Part shown: positions 31,192 to 36,628 of the stretch, one piece after another
How the letters are laid out: each line of letters begins with the position of its first letter
Position numbering within the stretch: position 1 is the stretch's first letter
Virus record (IMG/VR): IMGVR_UViG_2636415959_000003
Span: 1-42,713 of that record
DNA length: 42,713 bases
Source of the DNA: a virus
Lineage: Duplodnaviria; Heunggongvirae; Uroviricota; Caudoviricetes
Strand: one strand, 5' to 3'
Program-made: the position numbers and the translations under genes
Notes under the pieces: generated by a model
The model's database searches: none
Told to the model about the DNA's origin: nothing
Seen by the model: the letters and a program-made list of their open reading frames with translations, nothing else

Positions 31192-31734
31192 TCATATAAC
31201 CCCCAGCATCGATGTAACCATCGTCATCAGTGGGCCTGCCTGCTCCGGCATGAGGCGGAAGAGCGACGCTATACCCTCGCTTACCTCTTTCAGCTTCTGA
31301 TGCTCTGGAGCGTCCAGCAGCACGGCCTGTTTAGCCTCTGCGAGTTCTTTCTCGGCCTCAGCCAGGCGAGACATTTTGCAATCGGCACCGATCAGGCGAG
31401 TGCGATACTCAACCGGCAGGACCGCCATGATTGCCGGTGTCAGCTGGCGCACGTTCTCGCGGTACTGCTCAGAGTCGAAGCGGTTATCCAGAAAGCGAAA
31501 TAGCTTCTGCCGCGCCCGGCTGATGTCTTCCGGAAAGCTGATGGCGTTCCCGCCCTGCTCCCGGTATTCGTTGATGATCAGCGCCGAAACGACGTCCTGA
31601 TTGTCCAGCGCCGACGACCATGCCCGGACCGCATCGCGGATCTTTTCGTGGTCTGGCGCCGCCTTAGGTTGAGCGCGGTTTATCATCGCTCCCGGGTGTA
31701 TTCCGGTATTGTGTTGATACGCAAGTGAATGCAT
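31192..31734 (-). CDS. YdaT-like protein in the cII position
   Basis: LIINEYREQGG…LTPAIMAVLPVEYRTRL resembles Rac prophage YdaT as recalled. Start at 31734 or 31686. Confidence 0.5.
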   Translation of the reverse strand: MHSLAYQHNTGIHPGAMINRAQPKAAPDHEKIRDAVRAWSSALDNQDVVSALIINEYREQGGNAISFPEDISRARQKLFRFLDNRFDSEQYRENVRQLTPAIMAVLPVEYRTRLIGADCKMSRLAEAEKELAEAKQAVLLDAPEHQKLKEVSEGIASLFRLMPEQAGPLMTMVTSMLGVI

Positions 31735-31763
31735 TGCTTTCCCTTTCGTGGTTAGGGCCGCCG

Positions 31764-31985
31764 TTAGGCGGCAAAGATACTTGGATATAGAACTTCGCGA
31801 GGAAGCCCCGTCACTTCTTCGTACTTACGCATTTTTGTTACTGGAAGGCTGCCACCTCGCTTTTTAAGCATATTGATGGCCTGTGGCGTTACGCCGACCT
31901 TTTCAGCAAGCACCTTTTGAGAGCCGCCCACTGCATTAATGGCTTTCTCAAGCGGGGTGCTTGCGTTGGATTCTTTGTTGATCAT
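31764..31985 (-). CDS. cro: Cro-like HTH regulator (YdaS/Cro type)
   Basis: 73 aa HTH (QKVLAEKVGVTPQAINMLKK); divergent from cI; GGAG RBS. Confidence 0.7.
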   Translation of the reverse strand: MINKESNASTPLEKAINAVGGSQKVLAEKVGVTPQAINMLKKRGGSLPVTKMRKYEEVTGLPREVLYPSIFAA

Positions 31986-32102
31986 GTTTTGCTCCGCTCA
32001 TGTGTAATCAACACCATGTTAATTCATGATGTGGATTAAATCAACATTATGGTGATGGAAAAAATCCACATGTTGTTTACCATGCATGGAGCGGAGGGTT
32101 TT
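31986..32102. promoter_or_regulatory. Right operator/promoter region (OR with PR and PRM)
   Basis: Minus-strand promoter TTGATT-17-TAACAT with the motif ATCCACATCATG between -35 and -10. Further copies of ATCCACATG/AAATCAACA motifs in the cI-cro spacer. Confidence 0.6.
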
Positions 32103-32813
32103 ATGAGTAGCATTTCTGAAAGAATTAAATTTTTACTGGCAAGGGAAGGCTTGAAGCAGCGGGATTTGGCTGAGGCTTTGTCGACTAGCCCACAGACCGT
32201 CAACAACTGGATAAAAAGAGACGCGTTAAGTCGTGAGGCGGCGCAACAAATATCTGAAAAATTCGGTTATTCTCTTGACTGGTTATTAAATGGAGAGGGT
32301 TCTCCAAAGAAGGATCTGGAGAGCAACATCCCGCCAGAGTCTGAGTGGGGAACTGTCGACGCTTGGGACAAAAATACCCCCCTACCTGACGATGAGGTGG
32401 AAGTACCGTTTCTGAAGGATATCGAGTTTGCGTGTGGTGATGGGCGTGTTCATAGCGAAGATCATAACGGCTTTAAACTGAGGTTCTCCAAGGCAACGCT
32501 CAGAAGGGTGGGTGCAAATAGTGATGGTTCTGGAGTGCTTTGCTTTCCCGCTTCTGGTGACAGCATGGAGCCCGTTATTCCTGACGGCGCAACGGTAGCA
32601 GTCGATACAGGCAACAAGCGGATTATTGACGGCGAACTCTATGCTATTAACCAGGGCGATTTAAAGCGCATAAAGCAGCTTTATCGAAAGCCTGGTGGGA
32701 AGCTATTAATACGAAGCATCAATCGCGATTATGACGATGAAGAGGCTGATGAGGCAGATGTCGAGATAATCGGTTTTGTGTTCTGGTACTCGGTATTGCG
32801 ATATCGCCGATAA
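32103..32813 (+). CDS. cI: CI-type repressor (HTH_XRE plus LexA-like S24 autopeptidase domain)
   Basis: N-terminal HTH (KQRDLAEALSTSPQTVNNW), C-terminal GDSMEP…K catalytic Ser/Lys pair; GGAGGG RBS. Confidence 0.9.
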   Translation: MSSISERIKFLLAREGLKQRDLAEALSTSPQTVNNWIKRDALSREAAQQISEKFGYSLDWLLNGEGSPKKDLESNIPPESEWGTVDAWDKNTPLPDDEVEVPFLKDIEFACGDGRVHSEDHNGFKLRFSKATLRRVGANSDGSGVLCFPASGDSMEPVIPDGATVAVDTGNKRIIDGELYAINQGDLKRIKQLYRKPGGKLLIRSINRDYDDEEADEADVEIIGFVFWYSVLRYRR

Positions 32814-32818
32814 TTTTA

Positions 32819-32931
32819 GTGGCCTGAAGAGACGTTTGGGTGATAAGAGAATATCTGATAGTAGGCGTGGTTACTTTGCTCTCGGTTGTTGCGATCGTGC
32901 TTATGGTGGCCTGATGAGACGTTTGGGTGAT
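32819..32931. repeat. Two 26-bp direct repeats GTGGCCTGA(A/T)GAGACGTTTGGGTGAT (25/26 identical), 87 bp apart
   Basis: Copies at 32819-32844 and 32906-32931, starting 6 bp after the cI stop. Confidence 0.6.
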
Positions 32932-33079
32932 GGGCAAGGTGTTCTGGTCGGCGCATAGCTGGTGAAAAAATTATTTAATGCGGTGTATTGGCTGATTGTA
33001 ACCCCATGTAACATCTTGCCGTCACCATTTCGGTGGTTAGATTTTTAATAAAAAAAACAAATGTATAGCAAGGTTTTTT

Positions 33080-33559
33080 ATGGATAAAATTAATTACCCA
33101 CCCCTGTTTGAGCCAGGGCTCCATGACATGGATGAAGCTGGATTAAAATCGTATTGTGTCGATTGCTTTCCTTCATCATCCAGGCGAGGCATGCTATACT
33201 GTAATTTTATACAGCTACTCGAATCTATTCGAGAATTATCTGCTCAATATGGCTGTTTTACAGAAATATGGGTTGATGGTTCATACACCACGTCTAAACC
33301 AGAGCCTGATGATATTGATATTTTGTTGGTATGTGACTATAGCAATATAAACTCAATACCTGTCATGCTTCGGGGCCGCGTCGATAATTTGCTTGACCGA
33401 AACTACATCAAACAAAACTACAAAATTGATGTCCTACTACTCATGAAGAATTTAGATGACCCTAACTATGATTATGAGTACTGGCGTAGCTACTGGCGCG
33501 GTTGGTTTGGTTTTGATCGCAGTGAAAACCCGAAAGGGTTAGTGAGGATTTTTTTATGA
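33080..33559 (+). CDS. Nucleotidyltransferase-fold protein (minimal Pol-beta-like NTase), cargo gene A
   Basis: 159 aa; WVDGSYTTSKPEPDDIDILLV fits the hG[GS]-x9-13-DhDh NTase signature, with a later acidic residue (KIDVLLL). AT-rich; AAGG RBS. Confidence 0.55.
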   Translation: MDKINYPPLFEPGLHDMDEAGLKSYCVDCFPSSSRRGMLYCNFIQLLESIRELSAQYGCFTEIWVDGSYTTSKPEPDDIDILLVCDYSNINSIPVMLRGRVDNLLDRNYIKQNYKIDVLLLMKNLDDPNYDYEYWRSYWRGWFGFDRSENPKGLVRIFL

Positions 33560-34488
33560 ATGATAAATCAATGTTTAAAAATTGCGATAAACGCATTGAT
33601 TTCATTCAAAAAGAAGTCGATGCAATGAAGCAAAACAAAACCAGGTCCTTTGCTGACATGCTTCTTTATCGCTCCATGGATTCTCATCTGAGCGATTTGA
33701 AGGCCGAAAAATTAAAGCAAGATAGTCGGCACCCACTTATCGATTTTTTTGAGCTGCGGCTGAAAGGCTCTGAGGTTGACTTTGGCTCTATTCCTTTAGA
33801 GCTGCTTGGGGCTATTTCAACAAATCTTGCAGCGCTAATACAAAGAGCAACACACAAAATTGCCTCAGGCAAGGACTCAAAAAAAGTTCCCTACGACGTG
33901 AAAAGCTCCTTAAACCTCAGGCTGGCTGATTTATCCCCTGGGTCTACAAAATTGGGCGTCACCTTCTCTACAGGAATAGCAGAATTAGTAGAAACAGTAC
34001 CCAGCAAGGCTGTAAAAGGCATATTCGATTTGTTGTTAAGCGATGACGACAACAACTTCATGAATCACGTCGCTGAAATTGGATACAATTCCACTGTAAG
34101 CCTTAAGAGAATCGTAGAGGAATGCGATAAACACAACTTAACATTTGATGCAAGTTGGACCGGTCCATTTAGTAATGGCACCAAGGTGGCAACTATTGAC
34201 TCCAATAAAATTAAGTACTTGGTGAGTAGACTTACATCAACCATTTCATCCCCTCCCATTACTGAAACGGTTACAGGCGAACTGGTCGTTCTATCCAAAT
34301 ATGGGAAGCTGGAGCTTGATGTTGGTGGTGAACATTTAAAGGCTTCCTATCCGATTGAAATGCTAGATTTAATACAAAAAAAACACAAGGTCGGACAGAT
34401 TGTTTCTCTTTTAGTGGAGACTACTGAGATTCACAATGATCGCATAGGTCTGTACCGTAAAAACCATCTTGTTAAATCGGTTCTTTAA
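33556..34488 (+). CDS. Hypothetical 310-aa protein, cargo gene B (partner of the NTase-fold protein)
   Basis: ATGA overlap with gene A (33556-33559); no TM segments. One Rx4H match (RSMDSH), not diagnostic. Confidence 0.55.
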   Translation: MNDKSMFKNCDKRIDFIQKEVDAMKQNKTRSFADMLLYRSMDSHLSDLKAEKLKQDSRHPLIDFFELRLKGSEVDFGSIPLELLGAISTNLAALIQRATHKIASGKDSKKVPYDVKSSLNLRLADLSPGSTKLGVTFSTGIAELVETVPSKAVKGIFDLLLSDDDNNFMNHVAEIGYNSTVSLKRIVEECDKHNLTFDASWTGPFSNGTKVATIDSNKIKYLVSRLTSTISSPPITETVTGELVVLSKYGKLELDVGGEHLKASYPIEMLDLIQKKHKVGQIVSLLVETTEIHNDRIGLYRKNHLVKSVL

Positions 34489-34495
34489 TATCTCA

Positions 34496-34520
34496 CCCGG
34501 CCACCGCGCCGGGTTTTTTA
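34496..34520 (+). terminator. Rho-independent terminator after cargo operon
   Basis: CCCGG-ccaccgcg-CCGGG followed by TTTTTTA, 8 nt after the gene B stop. Confidence 0.65.
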
Positions 34521-34603
34521 TTGCCCACCCATAAAGCCATCCTCCATTCTGCCGATAACTATCCAGCCTGAAGCTGATAACAATAACTATCGCAACACTA
34601 CCT

Positions 34604-34628
34604 GCCCGCCCGTGCGGGCTTTTTTATT
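34604..34628 (+). terminator. Second tandem rho-independent terminator
   Basis: GCCCGC-ccgt-GCGGGC followed by TTTTTTATT. Confidence 0.65.
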
Positions 34629-34821
34629 GTCCTTTCCGCACTATCTCAGCTGCATCCCTGTTCACACCCTTACCTATCACGTTTCCCGTTTCCTTCCGGT
34701 ACCGTTCCAGCTTGTCGATGATGTTTTGCTGGGTCATAGGTAAATCTGCCAGTGACAACTCCATGACCGCCCGCCCCATGGCGTGAACCATCATGTTCAC
34801 TCTTTCTTCATCCAAGTCCAT
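34624..34821 (-). CDS. Hypothetical small protein (65 aa) divergent from PL
   Basis: ORF ending at the second terminator; no convincing RBS inspected. Confidence 0.35.
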   Translation of the reverse strand: MDLDEERVNMMVHAMGRAVMELSLADLPMTQQNIIDKLERYRKETGNVIGKGVNRDAAEIVRKGQ

Positions 34822-34860
34822 TACCCACTCCTTTTTGATGTTTTTTTCAGCATATCACTT

Positions 34861-34965
34861 ATGCCACCAAAAAATAAATCAACATAAAAATCAACAGTAA
34901 ACGATTAAATCAACAAAATAAATCCACAAGGTGTTGACCTACAAATCCACATGATGTTTAATTAC
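34861..34965 (+). promoter_or_regulatory. Left operator/promoter region (OL/PL)
   Basis: Plus-strand TTGACC-17-TTTAAT with ATCCACATGATG between -35 and -10 (same motif as in OR), plus three AAATCAACA repeats upstream. Confidence 0.55.
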
Positions 34966-35026
34966 TCCATCGAAACGAAACATCGACAGCTGAGCGAAGT
35001 TAGCCAGCGGCGGACAGCAAGTCGCC

Positions 35027-35039
35027 TGCTTTTTAACAA
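35027..35039 (+). promoter_or_regulatory. boxA-like element TGCTTTTTAACAA in PL leader
   Basis: 12 of 13 match to the rrn boxA TGCTCTTTAACAA as recalled; about 70 nt downstream of the PL -10. Confidence 0.35.
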
Positions 35040-35378
35040 CATGCAGATTTACAGCGTCAATGACCTGTTAAGACCCCTACACGTAAACGTGCTGTATCAC
35101 CGGGTGCGATCCGGTCGGTGAGAGAGTATCCCCGCGCGAGAGCGAGAACGGCGTGAGAACGGGCAACACTGGCAGGGAGTTGGCGCTGACCAATACAGGG
35201 AATGTTATGGGATGTGGTGAAGGGTTCATGGACGGGAATATGTCGCACGTAAAGCGGCGAGGCCCGAGGAGCTATTGCCGAAGATAAGTAGGCCGAATCG
35301 GGTCGAAATGGGTCTCCCACCTACCACAGCACCAAAGCATTTCTCCCGCATCAGCGGGTAACTAAGTGGAGAGTAAGT

Positions 35379-35567
35379 ATGCACAAGTGTCAATTCTGTG
35401 GGTACTTTCTGGCATCTGAAGAGATGCAGAGAATATCTGTAAACATGGTTGGCAGGCCTTACAACATCTGCATTCCATGCTCAGAAAAGTACAAAAAGAA
35501 AGGCCTGTGGGATTCGGCAAAAAACGATATCGACTGGAAAGCACTTCCATGCGTCGATGAGACATAA
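35379..35567 (+). CDS. Small zinc-ribbon-like protein (CxxC…CxxC)
   Basis: 62 aa; first ORF of the PL operon; GGAGAG RBS. Confidence 0.5.
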   Translation: MHKCQFCGYFLASEEMQRISVNMVGRPYNICIPCSEKYKKKGLWDSAKNDIDWKALPCVDET

Positions 35568-35600
35568 CCGCATCAGCGGGTAACGACAGAGGGTAAGGGG

Positions 35601-35897
35601 ATGATCGACGACATCAAGCGCATCGACTCAATGATAAATGCGCTTCGCAATATGAAACAGGACATCAAGCGTCAGCAGAAACTAAGTGAAATAAACAGTT
35701 TAGACCTGTCGCCGAAGCAAGCTCAAAAGCGCAATGCCGATGCTGACTGGATTGCGATGGAACAGATTAAGCGTCGGCATGAGCTGCACGCTCTGTCTGT
35801 TGAGCTTGGGTTCGCTGAGCGCCGGGAAAGTTATGCTCCATTTGAATTAACTGACGGGTGGCACCGATTCGACCACAAGCCGCGCGAACCTCAATAG
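35601..35897 (+). CDS. Hypothetical protein (98 aa)
   Basis: AGGGTAAGGGG RBS; followed by a terminator. Confidence 0.5.
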   Translation: MIDDIKRIDSMINALRNMKQDIKRQQKLSEINSLDLSPKQAQKRNADADWIAMEQIKRRHELHALSVELGFAERRESYAPFELTDGWHRFDHKPREPQ

Positions 35898-35918
35898 CCG
35901 CCTAACCAGCGGCTTTTT
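35897..35918 (+). terminator. Intra-operon rho-independent terminator (tL1-like)
   Basis: GCCGC-ctaacca-GCGGC followed by TTTTT directly after the stop at 35897. Confidence 0.55.
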
Positions 35919-36052
35919 CATACCTGGAGTCATTTACGAGTGGCTCAAGTTATGACAACCGGCGGCCATCCACCGCCCATTGAAACACTGAATAAATGCG
36001 TTGAAGTCTTGTATTAACCGTTCCGTTCGCCGCGATAAGGCCAAGAGGATTT

Positions 36053-36262
36053 ATGAGTGATTTGGAGTTGGGCTTAAAGATATACGCATTATGGTTTGTC
36101 GGGACGTTTCTGCTCGGCATAGCAATCAACTCGCTGACGAAAAAAGAACATCGCCAGCCACTTTCAAAACTAGCCATTGACCATGTACGCATGTCTTCCG
36201 CAATAACCATTGTGGGCCTGATTGTGTGCGGTATGGGCTGGTTCTTATTCAAGGTGGTGTGA
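36053..36262 (+). CDS. Small membrane protein (two predicted TM helices)
   Basis: 69 aa; hydrophobic segments IYALWFVGTFLLGIAI and ITIVGLIVCGMGWFLF. Confidence 0.5.
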   Translation: MSDLELGLKIYALWFVGTFLLGIAINSLTKKEHRQPLSKLAIDHVRMSSAITIVGLIVCGMGWFLFKVV

Positions 36263-36263
36263 G

Positions 36264-36422
36264 ATGACAGTCACCCACAACGGCAAGCAGTACACCGCCA
36301 AAAAGCTCAACGATAACGAGTGGCAGCTGACGTCGGTATCTAACCCGCGTGAAAAGCTGACGATGAACCGCTGGCATATGAAGCTGGCTGGCCTCCTGGA
36401 ACAGGTTGAGGTGAAGGCATGA
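36264..36422 (+). CDS. Hypothetical small protein
   Basis: ATG at 36264, coupled to upstream stop. Confidence 0.4.
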   Translation: MTVTHNGKQYTAKKLNDNEWQLTSVSNPREKLTMNRWHMKLAGLLEQVEVKA

Positions 36423-36628
36423 TCAACCACTACGGCACCACCCCGCTCATTCGCCAGTGCGTCACGCCCGGCATGATGGCATTGCATGAAGGCCGCACAT
36501 ATCGCGTCTCAGCAGTCATTCAGGAGCGCAAATGGGTATACCTGCACACTGACGCAGAAATAATCCGACTCAGTGACTGCGTGATTGACGTCCTTCTTGA
36601 CGGTCACGGCAACCCTATCCAGCACTAA
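36419..36628 (+). CDS. Hypothetical small protein
   Basis: ATGA coupling. Confidence 0.45.
   Translation: MINHYGTTPLIRQCVTPGMMALHEGRTYRVSAVIQERKWVYLHTDAEIIRLSDCVIDVLLDGHGNPIQH

Follow-up and report, generated by a model that had tools for sequence, protein, structure and literature searches.

The DNA considered here, IMG/VR record IMGVR_UViG_2636415959_000003, is a stretch of 42,713 nucleotides (nt), which as a whole is called the window in what follows; all coordinates are window positions unless another record is named. It is a phi80-like prophage, 71% of which is covered by phi80 at 93% identity. Directly downstream of its cI repressor gene, and in the same orientation, lie two genes, here called A and B, and the stop codon of A and the start codon of B overlap in the 4 base pairs (bp) ATGA at 33556-33559. 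Together they form a cassette that is a horizontally exchanged "moron" (lysogenic conversion) in the slot between cI and PL, and that is, as judged by profile matches, a member of PDC-M63, a catalogued phage-defence candidate. The genes and the parts of their products (lengths in amino acids, aa) are as follows.

32049-32813, plus strand: phi80-type cI repressor (Peptidase_S24 4.8e-19, Phage_CI_repr 2.5e-10; phi80 homology)
33080-33559, plus strand: gene A, 159 aa, predicted minimal Pol-beta-superfamily nucleotidyltransferase (NTase), DUF6932 / PDC-M63A
33556-34488, plus strand: gene B, 310 aa, PDC-M63B family
33556-33726, plus strand: helical hairpin of gene B, aa ~1-57, from the AlphaFold2 model
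Within gene B, plus strand: central alpha/beta region, aa 58-232, with conserved E63, R68, R122, G129, S130 and W201
34252-34485, plus strand: oligonucleotide/oligosaccharide-binding (OB) fold of gene B, aa ~233-310, from structure comparison

Two coupled genes of the PDC-M63 family

An initial annotation, made from the sequence alone, had already described a translationally coupled pair with an ATGA overlap, had placed it where lambda carries rexAB (behind cI in the same orientation, and ahead of OL/PL), and had called it AT-rich. All of this is borne out by the open reading frames (ORFs), by the cI gene and the OL/PL region mapped from phi80, and by composition. The content of guanine plus cytosine (GC) is 40.3% in the cassette and 52.2% in the window, no other 1.4-kb stretch of the window is lower in GC, and only 0.4% of segments of the same size are as low. 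The same annotation considered the pair undescribed, which does not hold, since both proteins match models in PADLOC. Gene A matches PDC-M63A (PDLC04744) over residues 1-158 with an E-value of 4.2e-41, and gene B matches PDC-M63B (PDLC04749) with an E-value of 7.5e-45 as well as five further PDC-M63B models; the two genes are adjacent and co-oriented, with A before B.

PDC-M63 corresponds to cassette CAS_00189 of Payne et al. in PADLOC-DB v2, a "guilt-by-embedding" candidate that belongs to a set of 145, all untested, drawn from genes lying within BREX, DISARM or type I restriction-modification (RM) systems (10.1101/2024.01.29.577857). The entry consists of a name only, without a validated phenotype, a domain description or a mechanism. 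What is new relative to it is the NTase, the helical-hairpin adaptor, the OB fold, the swapping of partners and the junctions of the prophage slot; this anatomy turns what has so far been a database name into a testable hypothesis. The PHROGs entries for both genes are of unknown function. No mention of DUF6932, PF22014, the phrog identifiers or the RefSeq accessions was found in the literature, and the papers on phage mEpX1, which carries nearly the same cassette, are silent on these genes.

Gene A matches the Pfam family DUF6932 (E 1.7e-24), with a sub-threshold echo of DNA_pol_B_palm, and some of its relatives also match PF01909. It contains the Pol-beta motif hG[GS]-x9-10-[DE]h[DE]h together with a third carboxylate. 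Among 49 homologues, down to 34% identity, no substitution is seen at G67, S68, D78 or D80, and D117 is kept in about 90%, so that the NTase signature proposed earlier stands in its GS, DxD and third-aspartate elements, while its spacing needs correction: the motif reads GS-x9-DIDIL, not x10. A C-terminal motif, RSYWRGWFGF-R-E-PKG (R136-G153), is nearly invariant in the same homologues. The AlphaFold2 model of A has a predicted local distance difference test score (pLDDT) of 95.9, and the Foldseek comparison that the initial annotation had suggested does find an NTase fold. The top matches in the PDB are mostly NTases, namely the Sulfolobus minimal NTase 2rff, MNT antitoxins, CdnC and AadA, with probabilities of up to 0.94, a best E-value of 2e-3 and template-modelling (TM) scores of about 0.3. 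By sequence, the PDB yields only a match at E ~0.1 to DNA polymerase beta. We conclude that gene A is predicted, from its motifs and its model, to be a divergent yet catalytically intact minimal NTase of the Pol-beta superfamily.

Gene B belongs to a large family (267 clusters at 50% identity), almost all members of which are 300-325 aa long. Its AlphaFold2 model has a pLDDT of 92.3 and a predicted TM score of 0.84. The C-terminus is a five-stranded beta-barrel that can be superposed on SSB, RPA or RuvA domain I, while for the central region no convincing structural match was obtained, so the structure search that had been proposed for this protein yields a fold for one end of it and no assigned family. 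Across the family E63, R68, G77, P80, R122, G129, S130 (100%) and W201 are conserved; they form no classical catalytic constellation, there is no conserved Rx4-6H, and the OB domain has no strongly conserved aromatic or basic residues. The protein was said earlier to have no transmembrane helices and no recognisable family, and this is what is found: the maximum 19-residue Kyte-Doolittle mean is 1.38 (1.25 for gene A), no Pfam family recurs in gene B and 133 other members, no NCBIfam family is matched, and neither a helix-turn-helix (HTH) nor a PDB match by sequence was detected. The enterobacterial clade to which this gene B belongs has replaced the PDLFG motif of the family with its own conserved version, and has lost the family-typical D142, G145 and W212.

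Both genes are under purifying selection. Measured against a homologue 87% identical, the ratio of nonsynonymous to synonymous substitution rates (dN/dS) is 0.067 for A and 0.059 for B, and because the families are also large and conserved, both genes can be taken as real beyond chance. This bears on the possibility that the cassette is a passenger with another function or none at present, such as a moron for host physiology or decaying cargo. The absence of any known phenotype and the residues lost in enterobacterial B proteins would fit such a passenger; the strong selection on both genes (dN/dS of about 0.06), the clade's retention of its own version of the motif, and a gene order and coupling that are kept across phyla all speak against it, and we give it only a slight chance of being right.

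Gene order and exchange of partners

The arrangement of A followed by B with a 4-bp overlap is found in all 54 viral (IMG/VR) loci. Every distant B context that was inspected shows it too, even one in which gene calling had missed A. Among 80 genomes retrieved via A, which span Proteobacteria, Bacteroidota, Firmicutes, Nitrospirae, Planctomycetota, Verrucomicrobia, Chloroflexi and Parcubacteria, the gene directly downstream of A is a full-length member of the B family in at least 56. The A-B pair is thus an obligate unit with a modular partner. As an example of the latter, in five Bacteroidota loci (L126, L133, L136, L138 and L140) the overlapping gene downstream of A encodes an HsdR-like nuclease-helicase of 852-860 aa, with a PD-ExK motif and the domains ResIII, Helicase_C and EcoEI_R_C (PADLOC REase_I, E 7.6e-52). 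PDC-M63B models are matched by the N-terminal ~60 residues of these proteins. A methylase gene in the same orientation immediately precedes A in L126 (N6_Mtase) and in L133 (N6_Mtase and Methylase_S), and in L140 an ORF with N6_Mtase is found ~2.5 kb upstream of A. In another example, from acidobacterial Pyrinomonadaceae (L066/L067, 8001-9464 of those loci), the partner of A is a 336-aa tetratricopeptide repeat (TPR) protein that has only the N-terminal ~52 residues in common with B. This pair is located amid genes of pyrimidine biosynthesis, with pyrR-, pyrB- and pyrC-like genes on one side and pyrD and pyrF on the other.

The N-termini of the partner types align colinearly as a helix, an NP-x-SF turn and a second helix. 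From this alignment it would appear that the N-terminal hairpin couples different modules to the NTase.

The Bacteroidota type I-like RM operons independently reproduce the embedding from which the PADLOC candidate was derived, and are counted in favour of a defence function. The same operons can be read differently, with the pair as an accessory or regulator of DNA transactions, where the NTase would modify or regulate DNA ends or a partner that binds or translocates DNA, for example to control restriction, to aid repair or to tolerate damage. In those operons A does lie between the genes for a methylase and an HsdR-like subunit, the OB fold at the end of B is of the SSB/RuvA/RPA type, and the profile of A shows a weak likeness to the DNA polymerase beta palm. 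In addition, on Bermanella-type contigs (L064/L065, 2355-9364 of those loci) the A-B pair is found, in divergent orientation, beside an SOS mutagenesis cassette resembling imuA-imuB-dnaE2. This adjacency is however a single case; in the prophage there is no adjacent restriction or repair partner, the OB domain has no strongly conserved aromatic or basic residues, and the conserved location right behind the immunity repressor is one where exclusion or defence genes are typically carried. A role in DNA transactions is therefore regarded as improbable.

Other neighbourhoods are mixed. Some genomes have defence-type genes close by (GmrSD_N, Mrr_N and NERD in one, an MmeI RM system and a Gp49/HTH pair in another), and among the neighbours in 25 diverse genomes there are a handful of PADLOC matches, namely SoFic, one MTase_II, PDC-S24 and PDC-S09. 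On a metagenomic mobile element (L068/L069) the pair is surrounded by many small genes, including an N6_N4 methylase, a Lar-like gene, RadC and LPD28, a context that resembles the anti-restriction or leading regions of mobile elements. A gene set typical of such regions, and an OB fold that could bind single-stranded DNA, might indicate an anti-defence or establishment function for the element itself, for instance the protection of incoming DNA. In at least 50 of the 53 prophage loci, though, the cassette lies upstream of PL and is co-oriented with the repressor, from which expression in the lysogen is expected and not early in infection, and occurrence in RM operons fits defence better than counter-defence; an anti-defence function is accordingly considered very unlikely.

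The immunity slot, its junctions and its surroundings

The slot between cI and PL is the classic home of superinfection-exclusion genes in lambdoid phages, and knowing its other cargo and its exchange points helps in reading the immune repertoires of prophages. The features that delimit it in the window are listed here.

32814-32931, plus strand: left junction, with 31-nt direct repeats at 32814-32844 and 32901-32931, both left over from a lambda-type cI 3' end (..WPEETFG stop)
32906-33079, plus strand: AT-rich upstream region, 99.5% identical in mEpX1 from 32906 on, with a weak terminator-like hairpin at 33018-33037 and the ribosome-binding site AAGG
34495-34520 (stem 34495-34514), plus strand: intrinsic terminator 1 (tImm equivalent) with a T-run, from the terminator scan; right junction
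34604-34628 (stem 34604-34619), plus strand: intrinsic terminator 2 with a T-run, from the terminator scan
34624-34821, minus strand: antisense ORF of 65 aa, phrog_3975, no Pfam match, between the terminators and OL/PL and reading towards the cassette
34877-34896, 34921-34939 and 34944-34962, plus strand: OL operators, annotation transferred from phi80
34934-34939 (-35) and 34957-34962 (-10), plus strand: pL, annotation transferred from phi80

The co-oriented gene immediately upstream of the cassette is an immunity repressor in at least 50 of 53 prophage loci, and these repressors are of at least five unrelated types (several kinds with HTH and S24 domains, and HTH-only ones). The cassette is thus found behind different repressors. 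In mEpX1 it is 99.5% identical to that in the window, and there it follows a different cI and precedes N and Nun. This allele is carried by 18 of 5426 complete E. coli genomes, and a second allele, ~55% identical, circulates in E. coli prophages.

On the left side, 58 nt match the cI 3' ends of lambda, 434, HK544 and SfI. A three-way alignment with phi80 and mEpX1 places the crossover from phi80-like to mEpX1-like sequence in the second copy of the repeat, and on the strength of this alignment the region 32906-33079 is assigned to the travelling unit. Phi80 itself has both of the lambda-type cI 3'-end remnants behind its own, unrelated cI. The remnants are a fossil of earlier exchanges of immunity regions, and apparently act as a reusable linker for recombination.

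On the right side, the hairpin of terminator 1 (CCCGGCC..GCCGGG followed by a T-run) is common to the window, mEpX1 and phi80, where it follows gene 40A, and it recurs even behind cassettes that are only 55% identical. A terminator-like hairpin is found within ~25 nt of the B stop codon in most of 39 downstream sequences of the prophage type, and at ~77 nt in two of them. Terminator 2, on the other hand, is inside a segment of ~95 bp (34530-34625) that is specific to the window and absent from phi80 and mEpX1, so that only terminator 1 is part of the mobile unit. The two tandem terminators reported earlier before PL were both recovered by the scan; the layout differs from the one first described in that the antisense ORF lies between them and OL/PL. 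The sequence of this ORF is present, unannotated, in phi80, and at least 10 other prophage loci have a 90-aa homologue at this position. The ORF is phage backbone and is outside the cassette.

As read from these alignments, the cassette entered by homologous recombination, between a cI 3'-end remnant on the left and the conserved terminator hairpin on the right, and replaced gene 40A of phi80. The latter (L009, JX871397, 2089-2955 of that record) is the cargo of the same slot in phi80; it contains DUF7946 and DUF7947 and has a weak match to PADLOC PDC-S42 (E 1e-5). A GenBank note that assigns 40A to the "acetate kinase superfamily" is not reproduced by Pfam. Comparison of gene B with the 40A family, a possible relative, by hhalign gives a probability of 1% from the single sequence and 7.5% from profile against profile (E 0.0047, B residues 64-197).

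It is worth noting that either gene can be found interrupted. In E. coli KL53 (L070, NZ_CP030919, 1744-3284 of that record) an IS4-family element, similar to ISVsa5/IS10, is inserted in A of an otherwise identical prophage, leaving an A remnant of 111 aa and an intact B. In locus L062, B is interrupted and A is intact.

The remaining neighbours belong to the immunity region of the phage. A cro-like gene (31764-31985) is divergent from cI; on the other side, nutL boxA is placed at 35027-35035 by transfer of the phi80 annotation, and the N gene (35601-35897) is 100% identical to phi80 N. A search of 31500-36500 against Rfam gave no match. Between pL/nutL and the first gene of the PL operon there is a GC-rich leader (~52-55%) of ~350 nt at 35000-35346, which has no convincing ORF and no Rfam match, and which is nearly identical in phi80, with two mismatches near its 3' end. 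Between this leader and N, an insertion of 222 bp relative to phi80 is found (35347-35585). A 17-nt direct repeat, CCGCATCAGCGGGTAAC, borders it on both sides (35347-35363 and 35569-35585), and inside it is an ORF of 62 aa (35379-35567, phrog_19863) with a zinc-ribbon-like CxxC...CxxC pattern. This insertion looks like a small moron directly ahead of N.

Proposed function and comparison with known systems

The reading that we put forward, at about even chances, is that the cassette is a lysogen-expressed, NTase-based anti-phage module; to any particular chemistry of A and B we attach far less confidence. In such a module the cassette would be transcribed in the lysogen, as rexAB is, by read-through from PRM/PRE or from a weak promoter of its own, with the terminators holding this transcription out of OL/PL. 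Gene A would be the sole enzyme of the pair, an active minimal Pol-beta-type NTase. Gene B would be non-catalytic, with the N-terminal hairpin docking or coupling it to A, and with a central domain and OB fold that might bind nucleic acid or a phage-derived ligand. Nucleotidyl transfer would be the regulatory or effector step of the A-B complex, and the target could be a conserved site of the partner itself (for example the invariant S130, by analogy with MNT) or an RNA or DNA end. The expected outcome is that superinfecting phages, probably temperate or lambdoid ones, are blocked. Counted for defence, in addition to the RM operons, are the defence-type neighbours in some genomes, the purifying selection on both genes, the low GC content, the mobility, and the position on the lysogeny side that the cassette shares with cargo of the rexAB type.

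A number of results weigh against this reading. The likeness of A to known NTases in structure is weak, as the E-value and TM scores given above indicate, and gene B is without a recognisable killing or effector domain. The role of the hairpin and the contact between A and B we infer from domain swapping only. No sigma-70 promoter upstream of A was found at the scan threshold; a candidate seen by eye, TTGCCG-16-TAGATT, is weak, and the upstream regions are not conserved between divergent cassettes. Enrichment in defence islands is not evident either, as the six nearest neighbours in the 25 diverse genomes, which were taken without a distal control, are mostly housekeeping genes. The most direct evidence comes from E. 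coli NILS69, where PDC-M63AB is located in a prophage and was deleted in its native host: efficiency of plating and liquid infection were unchanged with 10 virulent double-stranded DNA phages (PMC12409345). This deletion is the only functional test of PDC-M63 found in the literature. The negative result may perhaps be explained by the use of virulent phages only, as a prophage system borne in this slot may target temperate competitors. The suggestion of a defence or abortive-infection module in the initial annotation thus stays plausible, and has the NILS69 deletion against it.

The more specific idea of a toxin/effector pair has no direct support: B has neither conserved catalytic residues nor a killing domain, and natural disruptions are known of A alone and of B alone. 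Nevertheless, the pair could be a toxin-antitoxin (TA)-like module for addiction or stabilisation with no direct role against phages, in which the NTase neutralises or poisons by nucleotidylation, as in MNT-HEPN or AbiEii/MenT, and which is kept as its loss is costly. Many TA modules are themselves defence systems. A small two-gene operon with overlapping genes would suit such a module, as would the MNT antitoxins among the closest solved folds of A, the frequent occurrence of the pair alone amid housekeeping genes, as is seen for TA loci, and the lack of a defence phenotype in NILS69. Yet B lacks the HEPN Rx4-6H at a conserved position and any other toxin signature, A is not DUF1814/AbiEii, and the whole locus can be deleted, having been removed from NILS69 without reported difficulty (PMC12409345). 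The disruptions of A in KL53 and of B in L062, which are single cases, speak weakly against a strongly toxic orphan partner. A TA-like module is for these reasons considered unlikely.

A wider form of the defence reading, which goes beyond the prophage cassette and which we hold to be possible but rather doubtful, is that DUF6932 NTases are a modular class of conflict systems. Here a hairpin adaptor of ~55 residues would join the NTase to interchangeable partners (the alpha/beta plus OB-fold protein PDC-M63B, an HsdR-like nuclease-helicase in type I RM operons, or a TPR protein), and nucleotidylation, either of the partner or of the nucleic-acid end that it presents, would arm or restrain the partner. 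The prophage cassette would then be a new lysogen-expressed exclusion system, mechanistically unrelated to RexAB.

Among known systems, lambda RexAB and other cargo of the cI-PL slot (P22 SieB, BTP1 BstA) are similar in position, in orientation, in being horizontally exchanged and presumably expressed in the lysogen, and in that a lambda-type cI 3' remnant marks the junction. There is however no homology to RexAB in sequence or architecture, and neither the sizes of the genes nor the folds correspond. RexB is a polytopic membrane protein, and the cassette encodes no membrane protein. Homology to RexAB was rejected, as no PADLOC Rex model matches at E <= 1 and neither product has a transmembrane helix (maximum hydropathy 1.25 for A and 1.38 for B), in agreement with the initial annotation, which had noted that the pair does not look like RexA/RexB.

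AbiE and MenAT are likewise two-gene systems with an NTase of the Pol-beta fold as the enzymatic component. They differ in that A is a 159-aa DUF6932 protein and not DUF1814, B has neither the winged HTH of AbiEi nor features of MenA, and the gene order is opposite to that of AbiE; membership was rejected, with no DUF1814 or AbiE match in Pfam or PADLOC at E <= 1. A further comparison is with defences that signal through NTases, the CBASS CD-NTases, Hailong HalB and Clover CloB. The likeness would be an NTase together with another protein able to bind the nucleotide or oligonucleotide that is made, and weak fold and sequence matches to CdnC and CdnE are seen. Unlike them, A is half the size and lacks the CD-NTase/SMODS architecture, and B has no transmembrane, nuclease, TIR, phospholipase, dNTPase or SAVED domain. 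A CBASS-like reading was rejected (no PADLOC CBASS match; SAVED match for B at E 1.2), and with it the matches to Cas10 and adenylyl-cyclase palms, which have Foldseek probabilities of 0.13-0.33 and TM scores of 0.2 or less.

With type I RM systems the connection is through the five Bacteroidota genomes that couple a DUF6932 gene to an HsdR-like subunit, and in at least three of which a type I-like methylase gene is close by; the window, though, has no HsdM, HsdS or HsdR, and B and the HsdR-like proteins have only the N-terminal hairpin of ~60 residues in common.

The closest parallel may be the HEPN-MNT type VII TA system (PDB 7ae2, 7ae9 and 7bxo). Membership was rejected, as the partner, B, has no conserved Rx4-6H and is not a HEPN RNase. 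In addition, A has its unique conserved RSYWRGWFGF motif, and the likeness in fold is weak (E 2e-3 to 5e-3, TM score ~0.3). The cassette is thus not RexAB, HEPN-MNT, AbiE or CBASS. By analogy its mode of action would nonetheless be nearest to that of two-gene conflict systems under NTase control, such as HEPN-MNT, in which the NTase gene also comes first, the MNT protein is of about the size of A and offers its best solved structural neighbours, and the MNT antitoxin regulates its partner by AMPylation.

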